A stretch of 60,044 nt of DNA, counting the filler, from Jimgerdemannia flammicorona (taxonomy: Eukaryota), in NCBI GenBank assembly GCA_003990765.1. It is 3 parts of 3 records of this genome, joined end to end, with 100 filler letters (N's around TTAATTAATTAA, not from the genome) between each part and the next. Parts side by side here need not be neighbours in the genome. Positions count along the whole stretch, not along the records: positions 40,100 to 60,044 come from RBNJ01001797.1; 2 more parts are not named here. One strand, written 5' to 3'. The notes under the pieces were generated by a model, which saw only the letters and a list, made by a program, of their open reading frames with translations, had not been told where the DNA came from and ran no database searches. The translations under genes and the position numbers were made by a program. How positions within the stretch are numbered: the stretch's first letter is position 1; every line of letters starts with the position of its first letter. Below, one piece after another: positions 2,190 through 60,044 of the stretch.

Positions 2190-2597
2190 CTGGACTTTGT
2201 CAAGTTAAGACAAACTGCTAAAGCCCCAACCAAAGGAAGTCAAAAAGCAGCTGGATATGACCTATATGCAGCTGAAGAAGCTACAGTTTCCAACCGAGAA
2301 GTCAAACAAGTCTACATGGGAATTAGTATCCAAATCCCTGAAGGATATATTGGAAGAATATGCTGTTACAGCAGTCTAGCACTAAAAGGACTCTCAGTAG
2401 AAGGAGGAGTCATTGACGAAGATTACACAGGCGAAATTATTGTCCTCATCCGAAACTACAGTTGGACACTCTTCAAGATCCCTATTGGTTTCTGCATCGC
2501 CCAGATCCTATTCGAAAAAATTGAGTCAACCCTGACAGTCAAGAAAGTTCCTGAATTACTGCCTACTATCCGAGGATCCAAAGGATTTGGCTCATCA
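2190..2597 (+). pseudogene. dut: Retrotransposon-encoded dUTPase domain between gag and protease
   Basis: Trimeric dUTPase motifs AAGYDLY, YSSLA (RSS-derived), GGVIDEDYTGEI, IAQIL and RGSKGFGSS, all in the gag-pol frame. Confidence 0.93.
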
Positions 2598-2819
2598 AAC
2601 AAGACCCCAGCCCAACCTACTATGAGCAAAGAAGAACAATTCTACAAGAAGATCAAAGATGGATATGTACCAAGTGGCCGATGCCCTCATGGCATTGGAA
2701 TGTACTCTTCTCAAATGATTGATGATTGCTTCTCTTGTGTCAATGAACTGGCTCAAAGAAGAACCAACAGAAGAAAAGCTTCTACAACTGAAATCACCAG
2801 TATTGGATTAGACAAACTG

Positions 2820-25590: not shown

Positions 25591-25599
25591 CATCTGAAT

Positions 25600-37900: not shown

Positions 37901-38951
37901 AAGAATGACTATTATCTGTAAAATGATATTATGTATCCAAAGAATGATAACTATTTTCAGTTTGAAGCAATTAGGCACAACAATCACAATTACCTTCCCT
38001 TAATAGTCAACCCGCAACAGAACTCGTCCCTCTTCCGTTTAAAAAGAATGAATCAAGAAAATTGAAGCATGAAACGAAGAACTCGAATTCAAATTAACAG
38101 AGGCATGCATTACAAGTGTAATTGACACTATTAACAAGCAAGGTCAGAAAGAAACACACAGCTTAACAACAGTTTCTGAGTGTCATTGTTATTGGTTGCG
38201 ATATTTGTTTTTCCCAACCTCAATTGAAAAAATAAAATAAAATTAAAAATTGTATAAGTCCGTTTAGCGTTGTTGTTTCTAGCATGCAAGAAATCTTGTA
38301 CTGGGATGTAAAAGATCTTCCAAAGCCCCCGGGCGCGCCAAAATGGGTACTGATCGAGTGAGGGGAACGAGAAGGGAAGGAGAAGAGGACATCAAAACGA
38401 GCAACAAAGTGAACGTTGGATTTGGCTGGTTAAAGCACGCGCTTCCCAGGCGCCCTCGCCTACGGCGATGAAGACCAACCTTTAATCGTATTTCACTAGG
38501 GATGGGAGGGAGGGGTGCGCGAAAACAGCTTGGGAGCTACTACTAGAGACTAATGCTATGCGAAGTACTGATGCTAAACTATTGTTCGGCTTATTGCTGC
38601 GGTGAATAAAAGTGCCCCTGAATTGTACTAACTATGTATACTACGGTTGGGGTACGCTACGTGTACTGAAATAGACTGTTCTAGGCTCCTTTCGCCTCAG
38701 GGACTTTGCCGCAGTTTGAACTACGTTCATAACTCTGACAATTTCTTTTTTTGAATATTTTTTTTTTCTTATCATACTAGTCAGATCTCCGAGGAAGGAC
38801 GTCTCTACCGGGGATTCTCTTTACAGTTTCGATGATTAGGGTTGGACTGCATGGAGGCTTAGACGGAAGAACCTGTGATAAGTCTCAATCCATAGATTGC
38901 ATGTGACGATCGGGTTCGACCCGAAAAGGGCATACCCTGCAAGGGGCGAAT

Positions 38952-39999
38952 TTGTCAAACACAAGTCCGATATCTTACCTTGCGAACACACGTATACTCA
39001 AAAATATGCAACTATCCTTGTTAAAGGATACCAAGAGTGGCCCCAAGGAAATCAGAGTACTCGTCAAGGTTTCCGCTGCCGATGATGAGCAGGCGAATCT
39101 CATTTACAGCCATTCCTTCGACCTTCAGCGTCTCCAAACCGGTCGATCAATTGCTGTCGAAGTCTTTAACGTAAAACCCAAGTCTACAGACCTCAGAAAT
39201 TATGGCAAAAAGTTATTCTGCGCCCTCTTTTCGGAAGATACATCCAGTTATGCATCGAAGATGTTGCAGGATATATTGCAGTCTCACTCCAAGGGTCGGA
39301 TCCTCCTAGAGCTCAACGGAGACCACGACCTTGACATCATCCCCTGGGAATATGCATGGGGAAACCATGCGTTTCTGGTCCATCAATGCGCATTTTCTCG
39401 CATGTTCAATGTGATTCGAAACCGCTCGCATCCAGATCTAAATCAGAGATTTTCGACGTTTTTTGGAGCCCTCTTTCGAACCGACCCTAACCGAACCATA
39501 TTGGACAATCAGGATGAGCAGCCAAACCTTCCACTGCGCATTGTTGTCGTCGTGCCAGACCCCGTCATCCCCTCAGACCATCCCGACGCCAACCTTCCAG
39601 ATTTGCACTTAAGCGACCAGTTCCAAAACTTCATCAATGGTCACCGTGCCAACACCAAAAAAGTAATATTGGAGCCCGTGTCCCCGCTGACCGTCGATCG
39701 AATGGATGCTTTGCTTATGAACAAGTCCGGGACTGCTACTGTGCTTCATTTCATGGGACACTGCACAGGGGACAATGACAATACAAGGACCCTCATTTTC
39801 GAAAATAGCGAGACTGGCGAACCCGAACACATTGATACCTTACGCCTAATCAGCGCGGCCAAGAACTTGAGCCTCGCGTTTCTGTCCGCCTGCGATACTC
39901 GCAGTGTTGCCCGCGTCCTGTTGGAGTACGGTGTTCCATATACCATTGGTTCATGCTGTTCCTTGCCAGACGATCTCGCCCGCAAATTTGAGTCCAAGT
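38952..39999 (+). CDS. CHAT-domain (caspase-like, clan CD) protease gene, 3'-truncated by contig end
   Basis: LDIIPWEYA, LRIVVVVPDP, VLHFMGHC (His at 39759), LIFEN, LAFLSACDT (Cys at 39891) and GVPYTIG are typical CHAT motifs. First ATG at 39006; true start uncertain. Confidence 0.85.
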
Positions 40000-40099: not shown

Positions 40100-42191
40100 C
40101 AAACTTGTATAAATAACCCAGTATCTTCGAGTGAATAAACCTCAGATCAAAATAGTTCAAAGCAAAGAGATAGCAAAGGAACTAGTAAGCCTGCAGGCAG
40201 ATACACTTCGAACTCACCCACCCTCCCCTGTAACTCAAAGGACTCTGAGGAGTCAGAGAAGATCAAGTTTTCAAGATACAGAAATCTGACGTACTTTTAA
40301 GAGTAAGCATCTGCTACATTACACTATCTAGGAGGAATAAATATATACAATAAAGCAAAAAGAACAATGTGGTGGCTGGGAATAGAGAAAGATATCAAAA
40401 AATTCATCAAGACCTATAATAAATATCAGAAACAAAAATATGACCAATGAAATCAAAACTCTAGATCAGTACACATAGAACCAGTACTCTTTACATATAT
40501 TGCAATAGATATAATTGACTCTCTACCCTTGACCTTGACTGGCAACTAATACATCATCATCATTATAGATCTTTTCATGAAGTGGATAGAAGCAGAACCC
40601 CTCAAAGAAGCCAATGCTCAGTCAATTGCTGATTTCTTCAATAAAGAAATCATCTGCCTATTCAAGACCCCAGCATAAATAACTATAGATAGAGGAATAG
40701 AATTTGTGAATCAGTTCTTTGAGGTTCTCTACAAGAAGTACAAGATCTAGTATATATTTGAACTACAGCCTATCACCCTTAGGGAAATGAATAAGCAGAA
40801 AGAACCAATAAGATTCTCAAGAATGTCATTATCAAGATCTGTAATAATTACAAAAACTGGGATCACTATCTGCCAATAGCATTATCTGCTCTTTGAGATA
40901 TCTAATTACAAAGTACCCATTTTATCCCTCAAGAGATACTATTTGGAAAAGAAAGTTCTCAAGAAACCCTATTGTTCAATAGAGATACTGTATGGAAATA
41001 CATGGCCACAGAGATACAGAGACTATACCAAATCAGAAAGAAGTCTGAAGATTACATAACTAAGATACAGATATTATAACCAAATAATGTAGAAAAGATT
41101 TACAAGCCTTTGGAGATTATTAAGATAGGAGATAAAGTTCTGATATATCAGAATATAGTAGAAGCTTCATGGTTATGAAAACTGGAGCCTAAGTAGAAAG
41201 GACCTTATCTTATATAAGTTATAAAAAGAACTACCTTTTGGCTATAAAAGCTCTAATAACTGAAGTACTGCAACAGTACTCAAGATTACTGGTACTGCTC
41301 AAAGAGCTATTGAAAGAAGTGGTACACCACTAAATCTCTAACTATAGAGAGATCTTATGATAGTATTCAGAGTATTATCTAGATATACTTGTCATGAATC
41401 TTATACTTCAAGACCTACTACTATCAAACAGAATTCCAAGAGTACTTCAAACTTGGATAGATACTTAATCAGAACTCAGAAATGACTAAAGAGGATTACA
41501 TTACAGAATGCCAGCTATCCTATTCACAGATCACTATTGTCAAAAGGATCTATAAGTTATTTTGAGATGATGAACCAGCACTAGCCCACCTGTGAGAAGT
41601 AATACCTATAAACTTTGAGCTAGTAAGGTAATACCATTAGGCAATAGTAATATAACAAATTGTATAGTATAAGACTATACAGACTATTGAAGTTAGGAGT
41701 TTGAATAGATGCTTCAGAGATGAGATCATCTATTCAGAAGGAAGTTATAATAGTAGAGCCAAATTTGGAAAAAGGAATTAGAGATAGATATTTGATCACA
41801 ACTAGTCTCAAATTAGTATAGTCATATAGTTAGCAGTCACTGATTTCAATAGTTCCTAAATATTTTGAAATATTTGAAATAGAAAACCTGATATAGTATA
41901 GCATTTCAACAATGTCAAAATATTTTAATACTTTTGAAACAACTTATAACTTAACCACCTACTTTATAGCTAGCAAACTTGTATAAATATCTTTAATATC
42001 TAGAGTGAATAAACCTCAGATCAAAATAGTTCAAAGTAAATAGAAAGCAAAGAAACTAGTAAGCCTGCAGGCAGATACACTTTGAACTCACCCATTCCTA
42101 TAACCAAGAACTCTGTAGAGTTAAAGAAGATCAAGTTTTTAAGATACAGAAATATGATATACTTATACAGTTATGTGTCTGCTATATTACA
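40100..42191 (+). mobile_element. Gypsy relic: partial LTR (40100-40323), integrase fragment, accessory ORF, PPT and LTR (41746-42191)
   Basis: The two LTR copies share CAAACTTGTATAAATA...GAGTGAATAAACCTCAGATCAAAATAGTTC and end ATTACA. The integrase (IAIDII, DLFMKWIEA, EPK*KGPY) is homologous to 11080-12060. Confidence 0.88.
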
Positions 42192-42780
42192 GTATATTGA
42201 GAATATTTTGAATATATTCAATATATCTTGTATTGTCTGATAGACCTCCAATATAGGTCTGTCCATTTTTAGCTAAAATTATCTTAGCATATTACAGCTA
42301 TTTTCTTATTTAATATATATACATATTATTATATTCAAGTTTAGATATATGTACAGCTATAAAGTATAGTAGCCTCTTGTATTGCCTGAGCAGATCTGGT
42401 GTCTTTTTAGTCTACAATATATATATATATATATATGAGATAGGGAAATATTAAATAATACTATTGAACAAATATAGGTTATTTTTAATAAAAAAAACAC
42501 CATATTGCCAGATAATGCCATATTTGCACTCTATTATAAATTAGTTTTTTATATAAGATATTTATATCTTCTCTTCATTGAATAATTTGAGCGTCATTCT
42601 GTTGAAGTTTCTTTCTTATTGATTTGAATTTACTTACTGATATTATAAGTTATAACAGAGTGCAGACAGCGACAGCATCGCGGATCGTGACAGCCACGCG
42701 CAAAAGTGTTTGATGCCTGATTTATATATATACAACGGGTATTTTGATCGTCAGGTACGACGGACATTAAGTTATGGGAG

Positions 42781-43020
42781 ATCCTTCAACTCCGCCCTTG
42801 CGACACTGTCTTGCGCAAAATTCCTTCACTTCACTCCAGATAACTACACAAGTTCCCTTTAGGTATGCCAAATTACTTTACAGCTGGCCACGCGCTCATC
42901 ATTGGAGCTGGCACTCAACCCTCTAACTGGCTGGCCACGGTCCTCAAACAGCCATCGCTGTGTGCCTACCTGGAGCATAAGGTCAAGGTCCTTGTAGGCG
43001 GAATCATCCAGGGGCTGGAT
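42781..43020 (+). pseudogene. Third, 5'-only and internally deleted remnant of the caspase-like gene plus its upstream region
   Basis: MPNYFTAGHALIIGAGT/NWLATVLKQPSLCAYLEHKVKVLVGG matches 56114 onward. Upstream CCTTCACTTCACTC..GAT.ACTACACAA is shared with 56070-56100. Confidence 0.85.
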
Positions 43021-43527
43021 AACAAAACTGAAAGGTGCGCAATATGCATTTTTTCTAGGGGAAGGGAAGATAAATTTGGACTATGTAACTTTCACACAGA
43101 TACTGCGCGGTGGATCGATGAGTTGGTGACAGCCGAAGGGGGATTGCGGACAAGTTCTTTGTTTGTCTACAAACGTGAACGAGAAGTTTGGGAGCATATC
43201 AAAGAGACCATTGAAAAAAACCATATCCTCTATGCGAAAATGCTCTTACATGTAATTTTATGGCGACGCAATCCTCAAGGCCCGAGAGAAGGTTATTTAT
43301 TGTTGACCTTTCCGTTGCTATAAATGTTAGCTAAAGGCATCTTAATGTTATATGTAGTGTGAGCGGCCTTTCAAATACGCGCTCAATTACGTCTCTTTTG
43401 AGAACATGGGCATATCAGAATGTCCGAGCGCGCGAACCCTGTTCAGTACTTGATCAACTTAAAAGAATGGCGGGCAATGCGATAACGTCATCAGTTGAAT
43501 TTCCAGAACACAGTAGAGGAAACCTAT

Positions 43528-43581
<54 letters not shown>

Positions 43582-44909
43582 TCATACAAAGATTTGGCAA
43601 CGATGCCCGCGGAGAATACGATGGAGCAACTGCTCTAACCTTCCCATCACCATCGCAACCATGCTTGGTTTCTTGTCATTTCTTTGTACGCAGCTGCTAT
43701 CGAGGTCATTCACGTTTCTTTTTTTAACATTACGATTCTATAGAACAATCTCGGGGGCACTTTCGTTGCTCGATGGCTTGGAACCGTCGATTGTATTTAC
43801 GGATACAAGCAATAATTTCACGCTAGAATGGCGTGTTAAATGCATTCATTTGCGACAGAATCCGGTTTGGATATAGAAACATTCTTTTGCGCAAATGGCA
43901 GGGGTAGGCCAGGAAACAAACTAAACATCTAATCAGGTGCGGTGCCACTGGAATTCGAGACACATTTTGCGACGATATCATAGAAATGCCTTGGAACCGA
44001 CATAGAGATTTTTACGCCTCGTTAGTGAAAGTATATATAAGCTTAGTTTATATTATTATTATATAATTAGACTCTATGCTAATAAATATGTAAAATATCC
44101 CTTAGCTCATTTTCCATTTAATTTTAAACAAAATAAAAAATTCTGGTAATATAGAGGAACTGAGGGGCAGCGATATGAATAGTGTTATATTGGAATCACC
44201 GTGTTATCACCGGCTCGCTTTCGAACTATACATCGCGTCTCCGATACCATCGAGCTCCACATCATCGCCTCACTAATCCACACCGAACCAACGGTTTCTG
44301 ATGCGTTGAATACGGAAATGTAATCATACGGATCTCAAAAATACTTATTAAAAAATAATACTCAACTACAGCTCTGGGGGAGCGCGGGGTAAATTTCTCG
44401 ATGCCTGGATAACGACACCATATATTTATTTTGTTTACTTGGTATGCAGTGTCTCCCAAGATCCATTTTTCTGGCTCTACAATCATGTGATATCCAGTCA
44501 GACCCCGTTAATAGAGTTACGTGAAGAAGTAATACCGGCGTGCACGGCAATAGATACGCATCCATAGTTCTCAATTCGTTACACTAACTCATAGATTTTC
44601 TGACCCATAGTTGAACTCACAAAGTGCGAATGACGTCAAGCACAATTTTTATATAATGTGACCGAGATTGAATTACTGGATCCGTTAGTCGGAGACACGA
44701 GAGTAATTCTGGGATACATTGTTGCGACAGGATGTATACGTAGAGTGCGTTCCCATTATGTGTAAGTGTAGAAAGAAAGCGACAGAACCTTTAATTTTGA
44801 TGATCATGTTAAAACACGCCATCCGTTTCTCACATGTGCCATTTCATTAATATTGAAATAATTCCTACAAATATATTAATGGAGGACTTCTGTGTGGCAT
44901 TTTGCTATT

Positions 44910-45910
44910 TCACCGCCTCCAACCGTCTATACCATTTGTATAGCTGAAGTTGGCATTATCACCAAGCTGGTTTTGACCGGTAAGCGTAGGATCGTTGATG
45001 TGTTCAACGGTTATCGTGTTACTGTAGGTTGGAGCGGACATACATCTGCGGTCTCTTCCGTCTTCCTCATCACTGTCGATATCAACTCGAACCTCATATC
45101 ACCGAGCAACGGAAACTGGCTCGCCAATCCAGTAGTGCAGTGCCCTACCATAAAGTTATCTCACTTGTAGTCGAAACACGGTTGCCGCATTTTGATCTTG
45201 AAGGTAGCATATCCCACGCATGCCGCAAAGATATCGGAGCAGTATACCTCGGCCTTACCGGCCTCCTTGCCCTTACCCGAGAACCCGCGGGAGAGCCCGA
45301 TTGAAAAGACGCTGTATGTCTTATTCTTTACCGAGAGCCCGGTATGGACCTTTTGCGATGGTCGCACCGCGGACAGATAGGCGAAACCAGCAACCTGCTG
45401 AGTTGTTTGTCGCTAGCGGCGTGGCATTCCGACCAGGACCGAGGGTCGCTTCACTGTCGCCGCCGCGTTTTGTCATGACACGGCTGGCGTAGCAAGCGTT
45501 CAGGAGCAGTAAAACCCGACCCTCGAACGCCCGTAGATTGTCGGACAGCAGGTCCCCGTCGATGCCGCGGGTGGCGGCGGATCCATTGCCCTGCAATTAG
45601 AAGGGATCAGGTAGATCTTCGAGTTTCCTTCCCTGAAATAAAACACCACAACACTGCACTGCTCTTCGGAGTTGAGGAACAGAATTTTGAGGGCATCCAG
45701 CTCCTCGACGATGCGTTCTCATGTGGAGTATCCGCCTACGAAAACCTTGACCTGGTGCTCCGAGTAGGCGCACAGCGACGACTATTTGAGGACCGTAGCG
45801 AGCCAGTTGGCGTCGTTGATCGTACTTTTGTACATTTTGGGGGGCACACCTTTTATATCCGTCCCTGTTCCGAAGATGAGCGCGTGGCCTGCTGTAAAAT
45901 ATTTTGCCAT
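44910..45910 (-). pseudogene. Caspase-like (peptidase C14) protease pseudogene with C-terminal RHIM-like motif
   Basis: Paralogue of 56114-57145. Nonsense codons at 45782 (CAG>TAG) and 45161 (GGA>TGA), frameshifts, and the catalytic SGHG is destroyed. LLNACYA and the C-terminal ITVEHINDPTLTGQNQLGDNANFSY remain readable. Confidence 0.9.
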
Positions 45911-46199
45911 ATCCTTGGAGGGAACTTGTGTAGTTTTCTGGAGCGAAGTGACGGAATTTCGCCCAGAATAGCGTGAAAAGGGTCGGAGTTTCTAATCCAT
46001 CGGACTTGATTATTGGCGTGCAGTCGAACAAGTTAGGTAGTGCATGTGATTGTTTTCCACAGAAAAATAAACACTTCCGGTTTAGCCCTTTTGCATTCGG
46101 GATACTTTATATATTTATCCACGCTCTGCGTAGCTGCGGTAAATATTTAACTTCGCCTTTTTGACCCCCCTCGCTTGTCGCTGCGACTCCACGTTTCCA

Positions 46200-47443
46200 A
46201 TGGCTCGTAATCATCAACCTCCACCCTCGCATGGTCCATCCCCGTATGGTCCGCATGTTCCACCTCCACCCCAACATGCGCAGAACATACATGTAAGTGA
46301 AGTAAACGGACCTGCTTTCGCTGGACAAACTAGCATTGGTAATAATGCAAATTTTGGTAAGTACGACGTCCGTATGTCGAACTTGTCCTTTGAGCCGTCG
46401 ACCTAACCTCTCATTTTGACGTCTGTGGCAGAGTATACCAATTTGATAGTGAACCTCCAGCATAACCCGATACGCGCTTCGGGACCGGCTTACAAGCGAC
46501 TGGAAAGATATGCCCTTGAATTTGGGTTCGATTTTCAAAAGGTAATCAAATTATCATTTCGCTCTAGATCGTCGTCTAGTTTCGCGGGATTTACCGTGTT
46601 TTAACGTGCGTAATCCCTGTGCCTCCTCACCAGGACAATCCCAGGTTGCGAACTGCGCTAACTAAACACGTCACCCCCGCGGAGATAATCTTGCACGTTT
46701 CTGCAATACTGGGGGATGTTGAGGTCATCAGACTGCTCGTACAAACGGAAGGGGAGTACGAGGTATACGTGGACGCACGGCTTTGGGATGGTTGGACGCC
46801 ACTCCATCAGGCCGTGCGTTGTGGCAAGATTGAGGTGGTTTCCTTGCTTCTTCTAGAGCTCAGTGCTGAGGTGGATAAGGTGACGCTGGATGACAAGGGT
46901 CTGACGGCATTGCACGTCGCCGCGCTATATAACCGCGCGGAGATCGCGACGGTGATCGGCATAGCGCACCCGAACGTGGAGGCAAGGTCCAAGAAGGACT
47001 GGACGCCATTGCACGTCGCCGCCATGTGCGGACATGCAGAGGCGGCCGCCGCAATCGTCAACCTGAACGCCGACCGGCACGCGACGACCGATCGCAACTG
47101 GACCCCGATGCATTGCGCCGCGTTTGAGGGGCACGCGGATGCGCTGCGGGAGATCGCGCGTGTCCCGGGGACCGACGTTAACATGAAGGCTGTGGATGGT
47201 TGGACGCCCTTGCATTTGGCCGCAGCCGCTGGACACGCTAAGACGGTTGGGGTACTCTTGATGCTCCATGTCAAAATCAACGCGAAGGACGAAAATGGAC
47301 TCAATCCCCTTTCTGTGGCCAAAATGAAAGGGCACACGGAGGTGGTGAGGGTTCTCAAGCATCATGGAGGTGTTTTTGGCAGTATTCGGGACATATTTCG
47401 TGCATACTTGGAAAATCGAAAGTCATCCATGGAAAGACAGTAA
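46200..47443 (+). CDS. Ankyrin-repeat protein A (about 358 aa): Pro-rich N-terminus, RHIM-like motif, about 7 ANK repeats
   Basis: Exons 46200-46356, 46432-46541 and 46634-47443 (GTAAGT..CTAAC..GGCAG; GTAATC..CCAG) splice in frame. Repeats include GWTPLHQAV, GLTALHVAA, DWTPLHVAA, NWTPMHCAA and GWTPLHLAA. Confidence 0.92.
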
Positions 47444-48082
47444 GATATGGCCGTTATATCGAATGTGTCTTCCTATTCGTATTTGATCATTTCCGGCAAT
47501 GTATTTATGAATGCAACGATAATGTAACATGCATAGCATCCGTAATATTTCGAAATACATATGGGGCATGGCTCCGCCATTCGTTAATCGTCCGAGGAGG
47601 AAAACCATACATCCTTGGTTGTGCCCCCATCCAAATACCAACGTTTATTTCCCTTAATGGCAAAGCACCAGACTTTAAATCAGGCAACCGCGTTGTCAAT
47701 ACCAATGCAATTACCCTCTAGGTTCAAGGGGTCTGATATTGATCCCTCATGGCCGAAGTGTTCCATAATGACATGGATCATCAACACCGTGACAATTACT
47801 CTGGAGTTTTATCAAATATCAACGACGTGACTTGCCAAGGAAGCTAGCGTATCCGTTAGTCAGAGAATCGATAAGGAAACTTCACCAGAGACAATTGCAT
47901 ATTGTCACGAGCAATAGCGACCTAATTACTCTGAACACGAAAATACTCCGTTCGCTAAGTCTTCACATGAAAGGAATGCTGATATCTCAATACCTTTTAT
48001 AACCACCTTTGTGGAATATTTTGTAATATTTACTATATTGCTTTATTATATTCGACACGGACAGAACACAGTTATGCTCCAC

Positions 48083-49570
48083 TTATCTATTCTCCGTATC
48101 CTTGACCGCACGAGGGCTAGGTGCTCGTTGAAAAAACCCGCATGCAGTTGTCCCGTCGGATTTCACCAGAGGGCACGCGAATACGTACTGTTCGTCGCGC
48201 CGGCTGATTATCGTTGTGTCCCTGACCATATTACATAAGACAGAACAGTTGCAAACTGGCACGGCGGTCGCGCTAGGTACCGGCACAGGGACTTTTGCCC
48301 AGAGGATGTAGTCACACCCGCTAGTCCTGGTGCCGGTGGCATCGTAGGTGGCAGTATCGCAGGCCCAGTAATACCTCCCCCGGTTCACAGACCTCCAACT
48401 GGTCGCTCGTTTGTATACTAGCATGCTTCCACATGTACAATTCCCCAAAATAGGAGGCTCCCTCTGGAAGGGGTTCGCCAATAATGTGAGCGAGGTGTCA
48501 GTGGTGTGAATCCATAATAGCTTCTGATGATGGTGTAGAAATCCCAACCGAGGAAGAGCACAAAGGCAATGTAGCCGAAGAAGAGGCTGACTTTGAAAAC
48601 GTTACACCTGTAAGGAAAATAAAAAGAAGGATGAGATTGACGGCGGCACAATGTATTAGTGATGCACGTGCATAGGTATGTATGGGATCGGAAAGGTTCG
48701 ATCCAAAATGAATCTCATTCGGAACCAAAATTGGATTAAACCTCCCCGGCCACATATCCACCAAAAATGCGATACCCACCAACGATTGAACTTTACGACT
48801 GACAGCACAAGGCCAATCCCCCAGAACGCGGCAAGAAGGTGGTCGAAGACAGTAACAATAACGGACCACGACATGAAAAACGTGCGCCTACAGTAGACGT
48901 ATATGAAGTACACATCCGCGGTGACGGAGATACAACGACTACAGCTACGAAGTAGAAGTCCGAGACGTCGCTCTTTGGATGTGATGCCTGTGGAGAGGAG
49001 GGAGGATAAACAAGGGAGGATGTATGAGTCCTCGAATTAGAATTTGAGATACCGACAGATTGAAATTCGAGCCTCTACGGATCTGGTGTATCATGCATGC
49101 TCGTGTTTTGCCAACTCTTTCTCTTTCTCCTCATTCCTTTTTCCCAGAACCTCAACAGCCCATTCCATACTTACCAAGAACGCCCCAATCTGGAACGCAA
49201 ATTATGCCGCGCTCGCGAACGCCTGCCTGATCCTCATCCACAACCACTTCTTTGAGAGCTGGTGCCAAACCGAGAACCTCGATGGTCTCGAAGCGGACGG
49301 GGTGGCCGCTGGGGACGGGATGGTTGCTGGGGGTCTTCGTCGGTTGCTGACGAGTGATTGCTTCACTACCCCCTATCCCACCCCCGACCCCAACCCCATC
49401 CTCTACCACACTCCCGACCCCTTGCGCTCCCCCTTTCCAGCCAGTGACAATCTCTTCCCCGACCATATCATGCGCTTGCCCCGTAACCCCGACCGCACAA
49501 CCGCAGTCTCCGTATTTGGTTCCCAGACCTTCCCCAGGACCCGCGCCACCTCTTCAACCACTTTGTACGA
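48083..49570 (-). pseudogene. Pseudogene of the MARVEL-like 4-TM / GRF zinc-finger gene
   Basis: Same exon structure as 52484-54023. It has TCA>TAA in exon 1 (about 49203), a 1-nt deletion in exon 2, a frameshift in exon 3, and the 5' part of exon 1 is locally inverted. Confidence 0.85.
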
Positions 49571-50584
49571 GAGAGAAAAGGTTGCTTCACATGGTACCGT
49601 CCGTATGTGTATGGTTGACCTGCATGTTTCTTTGCCTGTTTGTTGTCTATCAGTCAGCGGCGAAGTTTATCTGGATTGGAAAAATTTCATTTCATCTGGT
49701 GTCACAGCGCCACTGCGCCACTACCTTAAAGAATTGTTTGTGTGACAAATATCTTTGATACAAAATCTTTCCACTGTCGAAATTCGAATTGTTTGGACAC
49801 TCCATAACCGAAAACAATGGCGCCGAGTTTCCGAGTTTGCGAGGGGATGTTACGTCACCTTTCCTTATATCGAGCCATCATGTATTATTCTTAATAAAAT
49901 TGCGACTCTATGCATCTGGAATTCCATTGCCATTGCATCACCATAAATAACATAATTATTCTGGTTGACAAAGTTCCGGCAAGACTTCCGATGTGAAATT
50001 TACCTCATCCAAATTTATCTCCTTGTTTGTAAATTATTTGGATTTGAATTACTGTAAAATAAAACTGTACCTCAGAGTTGTTCTAGTGATACACCCAGGC
50101 ATCGGACATTGTTTCCATAGACCACGGTTATGACGAAAAGAAGGGTAGGTTCAGACCCCTGTAACACTGTTGAACTGCGGATTTGATTAAATTTGTATTC
50201 CGGCATAACCGCATAATCCCGGGTTGTGGGCATAAATTAAGACTGCCCTTTTCGTTGAAAAATTACAAATCCCACGGTCCCTTGGAATATAAAACGGAAA
50301 GAGACCACACCACGACTGGCAATATCCCTTTGAAACTGTATTTTGGATCCGCGTCATTAACCTCGCCTAGCCTATCGATGATATCGCCAACGGTTTCCGA
50401 TGCGTTGAATAAAGTAATTCAATCACACGGATCTCTATTATAAGTAACCTCAACCTCAACTCTGGGGTAGGGAGGAAACGTTCTGGATAATGACATCACA
50501 CTTTTTTTTTTTTTTTTTTAAAAAAAAAGGGTTCACTTATTTTATAATGTCATATTTTGGCCTACAATCATGTGATATCCAGTC

Positions 50585-50900
50585 ACTTCTCTGGGAGCTG
50601 GTGCCACATCGAGTATATACATCGATGGTTTGGGAGAGGGCCTGGGGACGGGCGTTCGCCGGTTGCCCCTTGTGTTTCTCTTTGCGGGTACTCGGACAGC
50701 GGTCCGATTGGCGACGGGATAATTTGTTCCTCGTAATTATGGAGGGGGAATATGCGTGGGCGTGGGTTCGTACAAAGTGGTTGAGGTAGTGGGGGTGAGA
50801 ACACGGTTTTGTTGGGGAAGAGATTGTCGTTGGTTGAAGGGAGGAAGCGCAAGGGGTTGGGATTGGGGAGTGGTGAGGAGGTGGGACGTTTCGGGTGAGA
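50585..50900 (-). pseudogene. Third fragment of the 4-TM/GRF gene (exon 1 only)
   Basis: NYEEQIIPSP...YPQRETQG...SMWHQLPEK matches PYEEQTIP...HPQRDTQG...SVWHQLPMK. Abuts a direct repeat of 44270-44500. Confidence 0.8.
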
Positions 50901-51078
50901 GGAAGGGAGGAGAGTTGCTTCAAAGGGTCCCGTTCGTGCCACCGTCGGTATACGTATGGCTGACAGACTTGCTTCTTTGCCTGCCCACAGCCGTCGCAGC
51001 CGCAGAGCAGTCAATCTGCTGGCCCGTCACTGCGCCACTGCGCCATTGCTTTAAAGACCGCCATATATTGTTTTGTGA

Positions 51079-51112
<34 letters not shown>

Positions 51113-52483
51113 ATGCACACTATGAATATCTTTAATACAAAGCCGATCCCGTAAATATTATGCGCGCAATGTTTCTGGAAACACTATTGTCCAACTCCAA
51201 CCAGTTTGGACTCGCTGTAAAAGTAATTGGCAAGGGGCATTTTGATTGATATAGCAACAGACTATATGCATAACGTGTTACAAATCCCATTGGCCATTAA
51301 AAGACCGATATGCTTAAGGCAGGTATGGATTATTTTAGAGGTGTCGTCGTGTATTAGACGATTTCTCGCGAGATCACATGTCTATTATTTACGAAAACGA
51401 ACCTTTTCGTTCTGGCTGAGGTATTGGGGATTCATATTATACTTATGCAGAAGAACATACCATTCTCACATGGGTATGCTTTTCACGCACTATACGCTTC
51501 CTTACCCCTTATGTCATTTGGGCAGGTACATTGGCAAGTTAAAGAATTGAGGAATGTATTGTTGCAGCTTTTTAAAAACCCTCTAAGGTCACTAAGCATT
51601 CCTCTCTAACAGCTATTGTTGTATTTTCAAAAAATCCTACGTCTTCGAACTCTCGGTGACCCTCACCTCACGTTCCTGTTGCCAAAAATAACTTGAATCC
51701 TCTTTTATTAGGAAGGAAAAAACGGTCTCATTAAGGATGCAGGGGAACTTCGAAATTGCCTGCTTAATTCACATTATCTCGCTGTCCCATGTGGCGTACA
51801 TAATCCTAAATAAAGTTCAAGATTATCTTCTGAACTGGCGCTTATCGGGTGACTCCCTAAACTGAGAGATGCTCAAAATAGAATTTACCCGCTAACCGAG
51901 CATTTGTCAAACCTTGTTGTTCTCCCCACAAAGCCCAATATTGTTTATCTTGGCAATTCGATGCCAAAGGGATTCAACGCTCATTTGAAAAAATAAAAAA
52001 TAAAAAATTTATATTCATGAAGGCTATTATCGGAAGCAACTTCAGTACCTCTGTCGAATTCGCAGAGGGGCTTAACATGTATATCTTTCCTTGATGAATA
52101 ATATAGATGGGGTAAGGTGACGTTCTATCGAACTTGATACCCATTGCGATTACTCCGTGTCGCACAACCCAAAAAACTGGGGAATTAACAACATTGGAAG
52201 TGACTAGTTTCCAGAACGTTTCTGCGCATTTGCGGACCCGCAGTGCAACGTTCTACAACGAATGGGTGTGGTTCGATGCTGTGGGGTGACATTGGTCTGC
52301 GGCTCTGCTATCATTCTTTAAATTTAGCGTCGCCACACCGTCACGTTCTCTGTGGCGGCTTCAGCTGCTGGCCTACGTACCGATTTGGAAGTAGGGTTAC
52401 ATTCAACATGGCAGCATACATACACGGTCGTGTCATGAACCTGACATTGTGAAGCTTCTTCCACTCTTCCTCTACCTACCCGA

Positions 52484-54023
52484 ATGTCCCACCACCATAC
52501 CTCCAACCCCATGGGCTCCCCCCCTCCCGCTAGTGGCAATCTCTTCACCAACAACACCTTCCCCAGCTCCCGCGCCACCTCCTCACCCACTTTGTACGGG
52601 CCCACGCCCACTGCCACGCCCCCCCCCTACGAAGAACAAACCATCCCCGTCGCCAAATCGGAATCGGATAACCGTGCCGCTTCACGGCAGTCCGCGCACC
52701 CGCAAAGAGATACACAAGGTGGTGGCGGAAGCAGAAGCAACACTCCGCCCCAAGCGGACACCCCACCTGTTCGCACGCCACCGAGGCGCTCGGTTTGGCA
52801 CCAGCTCCCAATGAAGTGGTTATGGGTGAGGATTGGGCAGGCTTTAGCGAGCGCGGCGTCATTTGCGTTCCAAATTGGGGCGTCCCCGGTGAGTAGGGAA
52901 TGGGCTGACGGTTGGAGGGGTGTGGTTTTAGGGAAACTGGAATGAGGAGAGAGAAAATGGTGGTGGGAGACAAGCATGCATGGGACACCAGATCAATAGA
53001 GGCCAAGACAGAAACAATCGACCCAACTTCCTTTTCTCCATATCGCAATTTCTAAACGTCGTCCCTCTTTGACCATCCTTCCTCTGTGCAGGCAACCGGA
53101 GGAGAACCCATCCCAATGGCCGACGTCTCTGACTTCTATTTCGTAGCTGTAGTCGCTTGTCTCTCAGTGATTGCGGACGTGTACTTCATATACGTCTTCT
53201 GTGCGAACGCGTTTCTCAAACGGTGGCCCGTTATCGTTACCGTCTTCGACCTGCTTCTTGCTGCGTTCTGGGGGATTGGCCTCGTGCTGTCGGTTGTAAA
53301 TTTCCGGTGCCCGGTGAGCGGTTACAATCATTGGTATATATCGCATTCCGGGTGGATATGAGGCCGGAGATGTGCAATTCGGTTCTGATTCCGAGTGAGA
53401 GACATTTTGAATCGAAAACCTTTTCGATCCCCTACTTATATACATGCATCGCTAATCCATCGTCCTGCCACCCACCTCATTCTCCTTTTCATCCTTACAT
53501 CAGGTGCGACGTCTTCAATGTTAGCCTCTTCTTCGGCTACATCGCCTTCTTGCTCTTCCTCTGCACGCTCGGTTGGGATTTCTACACCATCGTCAGGAGC
53601 TATTGTGGAAGGCGCCGCAACTTCACCTCGGCCATATTGACGACGAACCCCTTTCAAAGGGAGCCTCCTACGATGGGGAACTGTGAAAAGTGTAGCGGCA
53701 TGCTGGTATACAGACGAGAGACCGATTGGGACTCCGAGGACAAGGGGAGGTATTTCTGGGAATGCAATAATGGCACGTACAATGAGAGTGGCACCAGGAC
53801 TGGCGGGTGCTCCTACGCCATCTGGGCACAAGACCCTGTGCCGGTACCTGGCGCAACCGCTGTGCCGTTCTGCAGATGCGGTCTCCTCTGTGATGTGACC
53901 AGGGCCGAAACGGCGAGTAGGCGGCGCGGCGAACAGTACGTTTTCATGTGCCCTCTGGTAATGACTAATGGCACAACGGTATGCAGGTTTCTCCAACAGG
54001 CATCCAGCCCTCGTACGGTCTAG
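52484..54023 (+). CDS. About 388-aa protein: disordered N-terminus, MARVEL-like four-TM domain, two C-terminal GRF-type zinc fingers
   Basis: Exons 52484-52888, 53092-53333 and 53504-54023 splice in frame. TM segments LWVRIGQALASAASFAFQIGA, FYFVAVVACLSVIADVYFIYVF, IVTVFDLLLAAFWGIGLVLSV and FNVSLFFGYIAFLLFLCTLGW, with loop RCPVSGYNHWC. Fingers CEKC...KGRYFWEC...GCSYAIW and CRCG...QYVFMC...VCRF. Confidence 0.85.
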
Positions 54024-54535
54024 GGTATGGAGATATTGATAATTTCTACGTTGAAGGAACTCAACAGTATACTATAGTTGTCCAATATAATTAATAAAGT
54101 AATAGAGTGAAATATTATAGAGTAATCCGCACAGGTGATTAAGAATGTTCCTAAATATCGATGTGTCGGCTCTCTTATTATGTGGAGGCTCAGCAAACGA
54201 AGCATTACCATATTAAATGACTATTGCTCGTGATAGCATGCAATTGCTTCTAGTGACAATCCCTAGATCGATGTGCTGGTTGGCTGATCGATGAAAGGCG
54301 GCGCTTAATAAGAGCCCGGCGTCATTTCTTCCCGCTATCTCGGATAGTGCATTTTTCCAGCTCGGACGATATGTAAAATGGCGGAGCAATGCCGGTTGGA
54401 ATTTCATATGGCAATATTATATTCTCGCGACATTCATAGGTGTTAAATACATTTCAAGTACGAATAGAAAGTCATATTCAAAATAACACTATCGTTCCAT
54501 GGACGACGTTCTGTTGATTTTCTAATTCCTTAAAA

Positions 54536-55742
54536 CTATGTGCGAAATGTGTCCCGAATACTGCGAACAACACCTCCGTGATGCTTGAGAACCCTCGCCA
54601 CCTCCTTGTGCCCTTTCATTTTGGCCAGAGAGAGGGGAGTGAGCCCATTCTCGTCCTTCGCGTTGACTTTGGCATGAAGCATCACGAGCACCCCAACCGC
54701 CTTCGTGTGCCCAGCGGCTGCGGCCAAATGCAAGGGCGTCCACCCATCCACAGCCTTCACGTTCACGTCCGTCCCCGAGACACGCGCTATCTCTCGCAGC
54801 GCGTCCGCATGCCCCTTAAACGCGGCCCAGTGCATCGGGGTCCAATTGCGAGGAGCGGTCGCCGCGTACTGGTTCGCGTTCAGCTTGACGATCGCGGCCG
54901 CCACCTCTGCGTTGCCCCAAATCGCGGCGACGTGCAATGGCGTCAAGTTACTCTTGGACTTTGCTTCCACGTTTGCGTTCGCCTCGCCGATCACCGTCGC
55001 GATTTTCGCACGGTCATATCGCGCGGCGATGTGCAGTGCCGTCAGACTGTCGTCATCCTGCGTCGTCTTATCCACGTCGGCATCGAGTTCGAAGACAAGC
55101 AAGGACACCACATCCACCATGCCGCATAACACAGCGTTATGGAGTGGCGTCCAACCATTCGGAAGCGTTGCGTCCACATATATCTCGTACTCCCCGCCAT
55201 CTTCCACGAGCAGCTTGACGACCTCAATATCTCCCAATACTACACAAACGTGCAAGATTATCTCCGCGGGTGTGATGAAATTTCTTCGCAACCGGGGATT
55301 GTCCTGGTGAGGAGATAGGGGATTGCGCATGTTAGACACATTTTCAATCCTGCGAAATAAGGCGGCTTTGTTGAGCGAAGTGATACTCTCATTACCTTTT
55401 GAAAATCGAAGCCAAATTCCAGAGCATATCTTTCCAGCCGCTTGTGTGCCGGTCCTGTAGCGTGTATCGGGTTGTTCTGAAGTTGCAATACCAAATTGTT
55501 GTACTCTGTCACAGAAGTCAAAACTGGATTAGTTCGACGGCTCGAAAGGACAGGGTTGACATTCCGACGCCGTACTTACGGAAATTTGCGTTATCACCAA
55601 TGCTGGTTTCTCCAGCGAAAGCAGGTCCGTTTACCCCACTGACATTGAGGTTCTGCCCATGCTGGGGTGGAGGTGGAACTTGCGGGGATGGACCTTGCGG
55701 GGATGGACCGTTCTGGGGTGGAGGATGTTGGTTCCGAGCCAT
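54536..55742 (-). CDS. Ankyrin-repeat protein B (about 346 aa): Pro-rich N-terminus, RHIM-like motif, about 7 ANK repeats
   Basis: Exons 55742-55580, 55505-55396 and 55303-54536 splice in frame, with the same intron phases as copy A. Confidence 0.92.
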
Positions 55743-56113
55743 TGGAAACGTGAAATCTCAGCGAGAACCGAGGGGGGCCAAAAAGCAATGATAAATATTT
55801 ACCGCAGCCTCGCGGAGAGTGAATTATATAACGAACTCACCGATTTGAATGCAAAAGGGGAAACCCGGGATTGTTCGCTTTTCTTAGTAACCCAAGCACC
55901 TGTTCTGTCAAACCTGTTCGACTGCGGTATATGGTGTGACCAAAAGAGATTGGTCCCTGATTATAGTCAATCAACAGGTACCACAGTCATTTAGGCTTTT
56001 TCCGGTGGGATGAGTAATCCTTCAACTCGGCCCATATAATACCCCTGTCATACTGGCCTTCGCGAAAGTCCTTCACTTCACTCTAGATCACTACACAAAT
56101 TCCCTCCAAGGCT
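55743..56113. promoter_or_regulatory. Putative bidirectional promoter between the ankyrin and caspase-like genes
   Basis: 371 bp between divergent ATGs; the paralogous interval 45911-46199 is 289 bp. The caspase-proximal block is conserved in three copies. Promoter function is inferred from position only. Confidence 0.55.
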
Positions 56114-57145
56114 ATGGCAAATAATTTTACAGCTGGCCACGCGCTTATCATCGGAACGGGCACCGATAACGACGGTCAAATCACCAAGGATTACAAAAGC
56201 ACGATCAACGACGCCAACTGGCTAGCCACCGTCCTCAAACAGCCGTCGCTGTGCGCCTACCCGAAGCACCAGGTCAAAGTCCTCGTAGGCGGAGACGCCA
56301 CACGCGAAAACATCATCAAGGAGCTGGATGCCCTCAAGACTCGGGTCTTCAACTCCGACGAGAAGTGCAGTGTTGTGGTGTTTTTTTCGGGTCACGGAAA
56401 ACGCGACGTGTCCAAGACCTACCTGATCCCTTCCAATTACAGGGCCAACGACCCACTGGCCACCCACGCCATCGACGGAGACCTGCTGTACGACAAGCTG
56501 CGGGCGATCGAGGGTCGGGTTTTGCTACTCCTGAACGCTTGCTACGCCGGCGGTGTCATGCCAAAACTCGGCGGTGACGGTGAGGTAAACCTCGGTCCTG
56601 GTCAGAACGCCACGCCGCTTAGCGACAAGCAACTCAGCAGGTTGCTGGACGGAAAAGGGTTCGCCTATCTGTCCGCGGCGCAATCATCGCAAAAGGCCAA
56701 CACCGGGTTCTTTGTAAAGAATGCGAATAAGACGTACAGCCCCTTCACGATCGGTCTCTCCCGCGGGTTCTCGGGCAAGGGCAAGGAGGATAGTAATGGC
56801 GAGGTGCGCTGCTCCGATATCATTGCGGCATGCGTGGGATATGTCACCTCCCACACCAAGTTGCAGCAACCGTGTTTCGACTACAAGGGAGAAAACTATG
56901 TAGTGGGCCACTACACGGCCGGGGCGGCGAGCGAGTTTCCTTTGCTCGGTGACGACTTGCCGTTCGAAGTTGACATCGAAAGTGCGGAGGAAGACGAAAT
57001 ACACCACAGAAATACGCCCGCCCCAACCTACAACAACACGATAACCGTTCAACACGTCTCTGGCCCTGCGCTTGTCGGTCACGTCCAGATTGGTAATAAT
57101 CCCAACTTCAGCTATACAAATAGCGTAAACCGTTGGAGAGGGTGA
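56114..57145 (+). CDS. Intronless caspase-like (peptidase C14 / metacaspase-type) protease with C-terminal RHIM-like motif, 343 aa
   Basis: HALIIG, INDA, ATRENI, VVVFFSGHG (His94), VLLLLNACYAG (Cys143), YLSAAQSSQKA, YSPFTIGL and QQP. An acidic linker leads to ITVQHVSGPALVGHVQIGNNPNFSY. Confidence 0.93.
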   Translation: MANNFTAGHALIIGTGTDNDGQITKDYKSTINDANWLATVLKQPSLCAYPKHQVKVLVGGDATRENIIKELDALKTRVFNSDEKCSVVVFFSGHGKRDVSKTYLIPSNYRANDPLATHAIDGDLLYDKLRAIEGRVLLLLNACYAGGVMPKLGGDGEVNLGPGQNATPLSDKQLSRLLDGKGFAYLSAAQSSQKANTGFFVKNANKTYSPFTIGLSRGFSGKGKEDSNGEVRCSDIIAACVGYVTSHTKLQQPCFDYKGENYVVGHYTAGAASEFPLLGDDLPFEVDIESAEEDEIHHRNTPAPTYNNTITVQHVSGPALVGHVQIGNNPNFSYTNSVNRWRG

Positions 57146-58329
57146 ATTGGTAAAATACCAAATAGAAATCCTCCATTTAACGTATTGTGGACATTATGTC
57201 ATCATTAATGTGTGCAAATGGATGTGTTTCAACATGGCTACCATATGTTGGGGACGAACTCTATGTATATATCCTGTTGCTGCAATGTATAACCAAAATT
57301 ACCGCTTTCGCTCAATCTCAACGCAACTATGTTACAAATCGTGCTTAAGGTCGTTCGCTCATTGTTAACCCCTGGCCATAAAACCTATTCGAGTTAAAGT
57401 AACAAAATGAGCACTGTCGATGCGTATATCCTGCCGCGCACGCAGGTATTATTTCATTGTCCGGAGGTCGCATAACAAGCGTCTACCTCAAAAAATTTAT
57501 ATATTTAATTCATATACATAATACATATAACTGTTGACATATGAAAACTTAATGTTCCATAAATGCAGACGCCATATGATAACGGGCCGTACCGCATCGA
57601 CATTGATTACTAATGTGTCAACGTGTGTTCTCATTGATCCAATTCCCGAATCAAAATACACGAGGACGCCGTCACTGAGTCGATTACGATGAGACAATTG
57701 AAATATGTGACTCCATGCGATTGCCTTAAACCAAGGAGATAACAAAGGGAAAGAGATAGCGCTCTTCCGAGGGTTCAGCTGTGATGCTACTATACGTCTT
57801 CGGATGTGGTTAGTGCCATCTGCCTATTGTAATGACAGGAACGTGCGCAATATATATACCTCAACGTCGGAGGTCAAAGGAGATTGAACTTTGTCAGAAA
57901 ATTCTGTTTAAAGTGTTTTTTTGGGACACACATGAACGTCGTTGGGCAACATTCACAAGAAATAACATAGAATTACATAGATATGAATGTTTTCAAACCG
58001 GGTAGCAAATTATTGTTTAAGGTTGTGGCGCCACGAGGAGCCAGATATGTAACTGTCATTATTCTCATTGTCAAGGATCGAAAGCACAAGGGACCCCATT
58101 CATTCAAACGGCTTAAAGGGTGGTTAATAGCATAATGAGACTCATAATATTTTGCGGCTCAATACCCCATGGGCAAATCAAGGTCTCTTTGCAGAATAAA
58201 ATAAAAATGCATACAATTTCGAAGTCAAGAGCAATTGTTGGGGCAACGATGTTGCTACGATATTGTGACGAGCATATACTATAGCATAGCCAGATCATGT
58301 ACAAAGAACACTTAGCATAGTTACCCCTC

Positions 58330-60044
58330 ATAGTTACCACATGCACCACCAACTTGTATAAATAACTAGATGTACCAAATCAGGTATATTGATCTCATTC
58401 CAAGTGGAACACTTGTTCCAAGTGGAACACTTGTTCTAAGTAGAATACTTGTTTCAAGTAGAACATCTGTTCCATAGAGAATGCCTGTCCTACAGGGGAA
58501 CAAGTGATCATACCTTCTCTAAATTAGCCTTACTATACATTCAATAATTATCCAGATGATAATCAGATAGTAACCACACTTGTATAAAATATCCCAGAGA
58601 TTTGAGTGAATAAACCTCAGTCTGAAAAGACAAAGAAAAGCAAAAGCCAATTGTCTGGAATACTTAAGAGAAATGTCTGCTAATTCAGAAAGAATTACAA
58701 TACTTAAAAGATATGTATGCCTGCCAATGAGCTACTGCTAAAAAAATTATAAGCTTTATTTCTTTTCCACTCTAGTCTACTTTCTAATATATGAAGTCTG
58801 TCAAGTTATAGTGAAGAACTTAGTTACTATTTTGGTTTACTTATCAGATAAAGCCTGAAGAACTCTGAGATATCTGCTAACTTGAAAAATTCATCAAATT
58901 ACTATATTATATAGAGCTTACACTAATTAGAAAATTATTGAAATTATTAATAAGAGAACTTATATACTTTTAAAGCTAACTAAATATTTTATTACTTTTT
59001 GACAAAATATCTGAGGGCTTATGCCAATCTATATAGCTGCTCCAACCTTTAATTTATCTCTATTGATCAGTATGTTATATTTGAAGACTTAACTGAGAAG
59101 ATTTTTAAAATTAATATGACTTTTTAGCTCATAGAACCCAATAGACAAACTGGATACATTTGGTATAGCACTAATTTTCATTACTAGAAGAAGAAAATTA
59201 TCAGCAGCATTTGGACAGAAAGAGAAGTAATTACCTCCAGACTAGCCAACTATCTATCATTAAAAAAATCCTAAGAAGAAGCCAGTATAGTATAGAACTC
59301 TTCACTATTATCAGTCTATTATCTAGATTATAGTTTATAAATAAATTAGAAGTATCAGTAGACTTATTACTAAGAGATCTAATCCCGTCTAACCAACTAG
59401 ACAATATAGATAATCTCACTTAATACTTTGATAAACTTATATAAGAATTTGAAAACTATATTGTCTAATTTCAATTCTTCTTAGAAGTCTCACCTATTTT
59501 ACCTCTATTTGGATCAGCAGACTCTATAAGCTCAGTATCATTAAGAATACTAAGAATTACACTTATATTCCAGAGATCAAGTACCTATCTCTAAACTCTT
59601 AGTAGCTCAACCAAACTCAGTATACCTATAAAAATAACAACTGCAACATATTCAGACACTAAAAAAAAACCAAAAGACAGTAATAATGAAATGACAGCAC
59701 TATTATCCATATTTGTAAGATATCTAGAAAAAGATCCAAGAGAATTTCTAAATATTCTCAAAGTAATTACTGCTTTAAAGAATCTTATATCTAAAAAACA
59801 AATTGTAATCTTCAAAGTACAATTGATAGAACCAGCTAAAGAAATCTTTACAAGAATATATATATATATATCAAATAATCCAAACTCTGATCTAGAATAT
59901 GTCTTAGCCACTATAAACTATTATGTAAATCAGTGTGAGACCACCTCTCACTAGATTATCAAAAAGTATATAAGAACTAAAATTTACTATAAAGCTTAAG
60001 AATTTATTATATAGATAAAAAATAAATCTCAGAGAATCTCTTTT
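58330..60044 (+). mobile_element. 5' part of another decayed LTR retrotransposon (LTR-like region followed by gag-like relic)
   Basis: LTR core CTTGTATAAAATATCC...GAGTGAATAAACCTCAG at about 58580-58620 is shared with the other LTRs; CpG-depleted, stop-riddled coding-like sequence follows. Confidence 0.65.
58399..58472. repeat. Four-unit 18-bp tandem repeat (CCAAGTGGAACACTTGTT), decaying rightwards
   Basis: Read directly; units are contiguous and partly palindromic (CAAGTG/CACTTG). Confidence 0.85.

Follow-up and report, generated by a model that had tools for sequence, protein, structure and literature searches.

A spliced and apparently undescribed fusion of a MARVEL-type membrane domain with two GRF-like zinc fingers in Jimgerdemannia flammicorona

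MARVEL proteins act in membrane apposition or membrane shaping, and GRF fingers are known from soluble repair enzymes, in which they grip single-stranded DNA; some plant zf-GRF proteins carry a single membrane helix, and a membrane-bound GRF finger may have a precedent there. Two short motifs of importance below are PPPY, used in ubiquitin-ligase routing, and NPF, used in endocytic sorting. Fungal MARVEL proteins are described as little studied (PMC9040847, the part consulted). For the fingers, the consulted part of PMC9561275 gives R518 and W547 of NEIL3 as DNA contacts and reports that the two NEIL3 fingers together bind more tightly, although the second likewise deviates from the motif, and the consensus of the fungal TOP3 fingers consists of four cysteines and NxGRxF (PMC9369019, also in part).

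As a case study, we consider a gene located in a window of 60,044 nucleotides from Jimgerdemannia flammicorona, which consists of three contigs joined by N spacers and of which positions 40100-60044 correspond to contig C1797 (RBNJ01001797.1). Three exons on the plus strand (52484-52888, 53092-53333 and 53504-54023) form an open frame of 388 residues, with a low-complexity N-tail, a four-helix MARVEL domain and two C4 GRF-like fingers. Exon 1 encodes the N-tail, including PPPY at 52619-52630, and the first membrane helix, and is partly covered by run X1 at low depth; the disordered tail of about 105 residues announced by the original prediction is indeed of low complexity, 65 of the first 105 residues being P, S, T, Q, N or G. 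Exon 2 encodes helices 2 and 3 and the first cysteine of a C-P-x6-W-C loop, which was also predicted and is present, with C208 and C217 as its cysteines and with intron 2 falling inside it. Exon 3 encodes helix 4 and a basic end common to the orthologues, after which some 25 linker residues, including NPF (53646-53654), lead to the two fingers and the stop. Both introns, intron 1 at 52889-53091 (203 nt) and intron 2 at 53334-53503 (170 nt), are of the GT..AG type.

Two public runs (X1 and X2) contain the region; neither is recorded as RNA, and we infer that both are RNA because their contigs skip intron 2 of this gene and both introns of the neighbouring ankyrin gene. Whether RNA joins the membrane and finger exons had been named as a check on the fusion, and contigs of both runs join them across intron 2, one in X2 for this copy and one in X1 with the letters of a paralogue on contig C7569. 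Record 7 of X2 runs from 53152 through both fingers and past the stop to 54065 (53503-54065 for exon 3 and its flank), with 0 differences from this copy over exon 2 and 5 over exon 3 plus flank, and therefore places the membrane exon and the fingers on one molecule. At the X1 joint, five letters match the C7569 paralogue and the deletion of the left-arm copy described below is absent, and the C7569 copy is therefore spliced too. Intron 1 is bridged by no contig of X1 or X2; in its favour, three copies (this one, C7569 and a further paralogue on C9779) have it at the same place, and the family profile crosses the junction.

Exon 2 alone scores 22.6 bits against Pfam MARVEL (PF01284; E 1.2e-4), under the cut-off of 32.8, which is passed by 5 of the 16 proteins recovered by a first exon 2 profile search of 1.84 billion representatives. 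Two proteins of that search (P0007 and P0014) were judged to be chance matches and dropped. A second round gave 64 proteins among 8000 scored candidates of 40-622 residues. The 77 proteins collected include 75 with a match to the membrane domain. Of these, 37 fall short of the end of helix 4 and are uninformative on the tail, and 38 extend to it; 37 of the 38 stop within 17 residues, and the last (P0006) is a 2677-residue model in which several genes are apparently fused. All named relatives are Mucoromycota (Mucorales, Umbelopsis, Glomeromycotina and Bifiguratus). A family profile built from 37 relatives, with the copies of this genome left out, scores 113.5 bits against the finger-bearing protein (positions 5-140 of 147; E 1.5e-36 for a set of 3 targets). 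These alignments place the membrane part in a MARVEL family found across Mucoromycota, of which the N-tail and the cysteine loop are ancestral features. A word-index protein search with exon 2, a weak method covering longer proteins only, gave no match among 191 candidates, and exon 2 of C9779 retrieved MARVEL clusters from the ESM Atlas at 0.86-0.89, a lead only.

The four membrane helices of the original prediction are upheld by the family profile and by the model of an orthologue, although a Kyte-Doolittle plot of the protein has no more than three hydrophobic stretches with windows above 1.5; the first helix is assigned by homology, from the profile over four helices and the four long helices of the model. 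This model (P0022, mean pLDDT 78.9) is a four-helix bundle that matches synaptogyrin 8A6M (Foldseek probability 1.00, E 3.3e-3) and, with 139 residues aligned, synaptophysin 9BRA (Z 14.6, rmsd 3.1), sarcospan (Z 14.4) being tied with them. Its best fold matches are MARVEL and tetraspan bundles, and gasdermins and MLKL/HeLo proteins do not appear among the top 50, although a pore-forming fold beyond that list may still apply.

A 28-row tree pairs the intact finger-bearing copies (99/93) and unites them with the C9779 paralogue and one exon from a sequencing run in a clade (100/99); searches of the genome find MARVEL exons only on C1797, C7569 and C9779. The C9779 paralogue adjoins an RSE1/SF3B3-type gene, which suggests that it is the parental locus. 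Its exon 3 was not found in the assembly, its contig ending after exon 2, so that the timing of the fusion is not fixed. Exon 3 of the finger-bearing copy keeps the ancestral MARVEL end and continues into the fingers without an intervening intron, which fits an origin of the fingers by extension of the last exon. A GRF profile scores in none of the 77 proteins (best E 0.19), a literature search for a MARVEL and GRF zinc finger fusion, with subscription papers and supplements outside its scope, returned nothing, and MARVEL does not occur in PMC12881547. The combination, which the original prediction could not match to any characterised protein, therefore keeps its novelty: the fusion is real, spliced and apparently undescribed, and from its distribution looks lineage-restricted.

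Finger 1 (53682-53825, plus strand) has its cysteines at C276, C279, C303 and C318, and finger 2 (53871-53996, plus strand) at C339, C341, C365 and C376. Four zinc ligands in GRF spacing are found in both fingers of all three copies that carry them, all eight cysteines being retained. With six GRF fingers of this genome as the profile, finger 1 scores 19.9 bits and finger 2 12.1, values reached by 0 of 1000 shuffles each, the margin for finger 2 being thin (shuffle maximum 11.3 bits). Pfam zf-GRF (PF06839) matches finger 1 at 15.2 bits in this copy and 22.0 in C7569, both below the 25.9-bit cut-off, and a scan of finger 2 gave no match; therefore both fingers are, by profile, divergent. The core of finger 1 is kept, with G-R-x-F, an arginine ten places upstream and a terminal tryptophan: it reads G-R-Y-F with Trp323 here and G-R-Y-Y in C7569 (probability 86.8), with an aromatic cluster after the last cysteine. 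Finger 2 is degenerate, with G-E-Q-Y in place of G-R-x-F and no terminal tryptophan, and by this core test is GRF-like and not a zf-GRF member. The prediction of two GRF-type fingers holds, with the C4 spacing present in both and the core in finger 1, although finger 2 lacks the core and Pfam scores are below cut-off or absent. The tandem GRF of NEIL3 (7JL5) is colinear over both fingers (E 0.18) and, in our own residue mapping from this alignment, the arginine and tryptophan of finger 1 would align with R518 and W547. For exon 3, AlphaFold gave a poor model (pLDDT 48.6). Fold searches from it said little about a GRF beta-sheet, the GRF domains of APE2 and NEIL3 coming at ranks 5 and 6 with a non-significant E of 0.7.

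In each intact copy, finger 2 resembles finger 3 of the host TOP3 most strongly (z 8.4 and 6.5) and finger 1 does not discriminate among donors, a weak hint of a TOP3 origin. At the DNA level the fingers show no similarity to those of the host TOP3, and no free-standing finger copy was found in the genome by protein or DNA search (the first look being loose), so no transposon donor was found. The host TOP3 itself, on contig C651 (L055), carries three GRF fingers and a likely CCHC knuckle. The same weak word-index search, restricted to longer proteins, found no match to exon 3 among 221 candidates, the ESM Atlas returned nothing usable for exon 3, and metagenome scans with exons 3 and 2 and one viral scan with exon 3 gave no confirmed relative.

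The C7569 copy is intact, with all eight finger cysteines. Between the two intact copies, dN/dS is 0.22 for the MARVEL domain (0.11-0.41), 0.43 for the fingers (CI 0.25-0.74) and 0.78 for the N-tail. Finger changes, synonymous/non-synonymous, are 6/6 on the C7569 branch, 26/38 on that of the 52484-54023 copy and 2/15 on that of the pseudogene; the intact branches together (32:44) differ from the pseudogene (2:15; Fisher p 0.025) and depart from neutral (p 0.0003), whereas the pseudogene shows no purifying selection. The dS over the fingers (0.57) exceeds the intron divergence (0.26), and the apparent constraint may be somewhat inflated. The membrane domain and the fingers are both under purifying selection.

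We propose, tentatively and with a probability of roughly 0.45, that the protein is a membrane-anchored adaptor that holds single-stranded nucleic acid at the cytosolic face, probably independently of the neighbouring protease. The gene would be a spliced, conserved duplicate of the Mucoromycota MARVEL protein whose last exon extends into two GRF-like C4 fingers, these having perhaps been captured from another GRF gene, possibly TOP3. Both ends would face the cytosol, because lysine and arginine are enriched before helix 1 (4), in loop 2 (2) and after helix 4 (4), with 0 and 1 in loops 1 and 3. PPPY in the N-tail and NPF would direct the protein via ubiquitin-ligase and endocytic sorting, and finger 1 would bind single-stranded DNA or RNA with finger 2 in support. 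The gene would have become a neighbour of an ankyrin-caspase pair once, and then have been copied as a passenger in an unstable gene island of the immunity type.

The fingers could also be kept as zinc ribbons that do not bind nucleic acid and serve a membrane trafficking adaptor as a cytosolic protein-binding module, a reading that we regard as rather unlikely but which accounts for several features. Finger 2, the one without a GRF core, is the better conserved of the two (76% identity, dN/dS 0.31, against 57% and 0.60 for finger 1, whose interval of 0.27-1.20 includes 1), finger 1 of this copy is acidic (net charge -3, with +1 in C7569 and 0 to +5 in the six host fingers), and PPPY and NPF are present in both intact copies. 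However, both intact copies have a finger 1 that keeps the G-R-aromatic-aromatic core, the upstream arginine and the tryptophan, together with a basic finger 2 (+3 and +4), and the deviating second finger has its parallel in the tighter-binding NEIL3 pair (PMC9561275, the part consulted).

The surroundings of the gene bear on its proposed independence. The block is ordered MARVEL-finger gene (plus strand), ankyrin-repeat gene (54536-55742, minus strand; three exons, 346 aa, N-terminal G/N-rich motif) and Peptidase_C14 caspase-like gene (56114-57145, plus strand; single exon, 343 aa, His/Cys dyad intact, C-terminal motif matching that of the ankyrin protein), the last two being head-to-head and 371 bases apart. 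Positions 44845-50958 are an inverted copy of the block at 67-80% identity, with an intact-looking ankyrin copy (46200-47443, plus strand), a broken caspase (approximately 44900-45910, minus strand), a broken MARVEL-finger copy (48086-49570, minus strand) with a stop, frameshifts, a deletion in the cysteine loop and part of exon 1 inverted at 49363-49570, and a further decayed exon 1 remnant (50584-50958, minus strand). Co-duplication with the ankyrin and caspase genes, and inactivation in the same arm as the protease, were thus both correctly foreseen. Divergence between the arms is similar for the caspase (dS 0.30) and the ankyrin (0.32) and resembles that of the MARVEL exons between the intact copies (0.34-0.47), which therefore points to one ancestral juxtaposition that was then copied; on this comparison, all linked copies descend from one duplicated block.

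Elsewhere in the window, the second contig carries a 4.8-kb inverted repeat (20072-30355) with 67% identity and strongly mirrored GC skew, and a CHAT-domain frame (38907-39999, E 1.8e-11) cut by the end of that contig, and retrotransposon frames with dUTPase, aspartyl protease, reverse transcriptase and RNase H lie at 2130-4649.

The sole intact caspase of the block is still flanked by intact MARVEL-finger and ankyrin genes. On C7569, a broken caspase precedes the intact, spliced MARVEL-finger gene by about 2.2 kb, and this contig starts 341 bases before that caspase. On C48, 16 kb with an ankyrin start and a broken caspase contain no MARVEL gene. Because the C7569 copy adjoins a broken caspase, retention of the MARVEL-finger gene does not track the protease, and the linkage to the neighbouring protease is likely shared duplication only. 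The 1782-base contig C27561 (L067) is a fold-back in which two nearly identical ankyrin 3' ends face one another, a palindrome or an assembly artefact.

At least 13 caspase-like genes without internal stops are found in the genome (L014-L028), most of them with varied G/N-rich tails. Two caspase frames have a predicted membrane helix, one N-terminal and the other C-terminal (L075:6342-8171 and L083:985-2184). On C814, a frame of at least 1560 residues (L080:2-4681) with a weak MACPF match (E 0.009, under the cut-off) lies 2.4 kb from an intact caspase and is a possible pore-former. C2834 has a second head-to-head caspase-ankyrin pair (L045:6085-9088), which is older (caspase dS 1.0); a frame that lacks a Pfam match and has about five predicted membrane helices (L046:814-1737) lies 1.7 kb beyond its ankyrin, and a frame upstream of the ankyrin has a motif that matches, by eye, the tail variant of that caspase, which suggests co-varying motif pairs.

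The protein might instead act as a co-sensor or decoy that binds foreign nucleic acid or an intruder effector at the membrane, its state being read by the ankyrin repeats, which would activate the caspase via the common motif; we find this quite improbable. The MARVEL-finger and ankyrin genes are tail-to-tail in both arms, a remnant of the 3' flank survives beside the C27561 ankyrin ends, both runs contain contigs for each of the three genes in the intact block, and other caspases of the genome have ankyrin, Sel1 or TPR genes as neighbours (several loci; 30 of the 90 listed frames scanned). Against these stand the left-arm ankyrin, intact beside a dead MARVEL-finger gene, the C7569 contig, which retains the MARVEL gene and has no ankyrin, and the C2834 pair, near which no MARVEL gene is found in 16,000 of 16,576 bases.

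The G/N-rich motif shared by the ankyrin N-terminus and the caspase C-terminus (54536-57145) resembles RHIM/PP amyloid motifs. A bolder, and distinctly doubtful, proposal is a three-gene fungal immune module without an NLR, assembled from a trafficking MARVEL protein and DNA-repair fingers, in which a membrane-tethered tandem GRF protein would catch foreign single-stranded nucleic acid, from a mycovirus or endobacterium, and would trigger, or be cut by, the ankyrin-caspase pair coupled via the amyloid-like motif.

Besides a membrane-tethered nucleic-acid sensor, close to the reading that we favour, the original prediction offered a membrane substrate or executioner of the caspase, in the manner of fungal gasdermins, where cleavage would remove the N-tail or the fingers and free a toxic four-helix unit. 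The physical linkage and the death of the gene in the same arm as the caspase agree with it, and a precedent exists in that 80% of 1,884 fungal gasdermin genes lie at most 10 kb from a protease gene (PMC8851545, in the part consulted). The idea did not survive well and we hold it to be very unlikely: the membrane part is orthologous to a widespread, finger-less protein with a fold like that of synaptogyrin and synaptophysin, the N-tail is ancestral and near neutral between copies, the linkage goes back to a single copied block, and loss of two of three genes in a duplicate is unremarkable. In addition, the intact C7569 copy adjoins a dead caspase, and 0 of the 12 other caspase loci of this genome that are free of internal stops have a MARVEL or finger match within the 4-17 kb covered around them, although action in trans on the one intact caspase is conceivable. 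The motif common to ankyrin and caspase is also absent from the MARVEL-finger protein (152 of 500 shuffles reach its score of 26, and 0 of 500 the 75 of the ankyrin).

That the finger region is a functionless chance read-through into decayed sequence, as sub-threshold Pfam scores, the poor exon 3 model and the want of any relative found outside this genome might suggest, is scarcely credible given an open frame and eight cysteines kept across a dS of 0.57, purifying selection that is significant on the intact branches and absent from the pseudogene, and spliced contigs.

The adaptor reading, if correct, would make the anchoring of GRF fingers through a MARVEL domain a new use of both parts, and the gene, a fusion seen in one genome and with a predicted function, offers a small, testable example of domain fusion in a duplicate of a conserved gene. 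Were the protein to belong to the ankyrin-caspase pair after all, it would represent a nucleic-acid sensor for fungal immunity.

Compared with known systems, the protein is nearest to the uncharacterised Mucoromycota MARVEL proteins (PF01284; among them Phycomyces nitens KAI9016398.1, Geosiphon pyriformis KAG9285570.1 and Syncephalastrum racemosum ORY93903.1), with which it shares a long low-complexity N-tail, four helices, a basic end after helix 4 and two loop cysteines that are invariant in 31 of 31 aligned relatives; unlike these, which stop 7-17 residues past the W-D motif of helix 4, it continues for 149 further residues with 10 cysteines. Synaptogyrin and synaptophysin (PDB 8A6M, 9BRA and 9B8O) are the best fold matches of the orthologue model, not of a model of the finger protein itself, and lack zinc fingers; identity is 17%, and the common fold does not show function. 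With the tandem zf-GRF of NEIL3 (PDB 7JL5), APE2 (5U6Z) and fungal TOP3 it has in common two C4-type ribbons and a short linker, and it differs from these soluble DNA-repair enzymes in having no catalytic domain, a membrane-domain anchor and divergent fingers. It resembles the fungal gasdermin-protease clusters (HET-Q1/HET-Q2; PMC8851545, the part consulted) in that a membrane-related gene lies less than 3 kb from a gene for a caspase-fold protease, and departs from them in its MARVEL fold match, in a linkage confined to one duplicated block of one genome, and in a cleavage that is putative.
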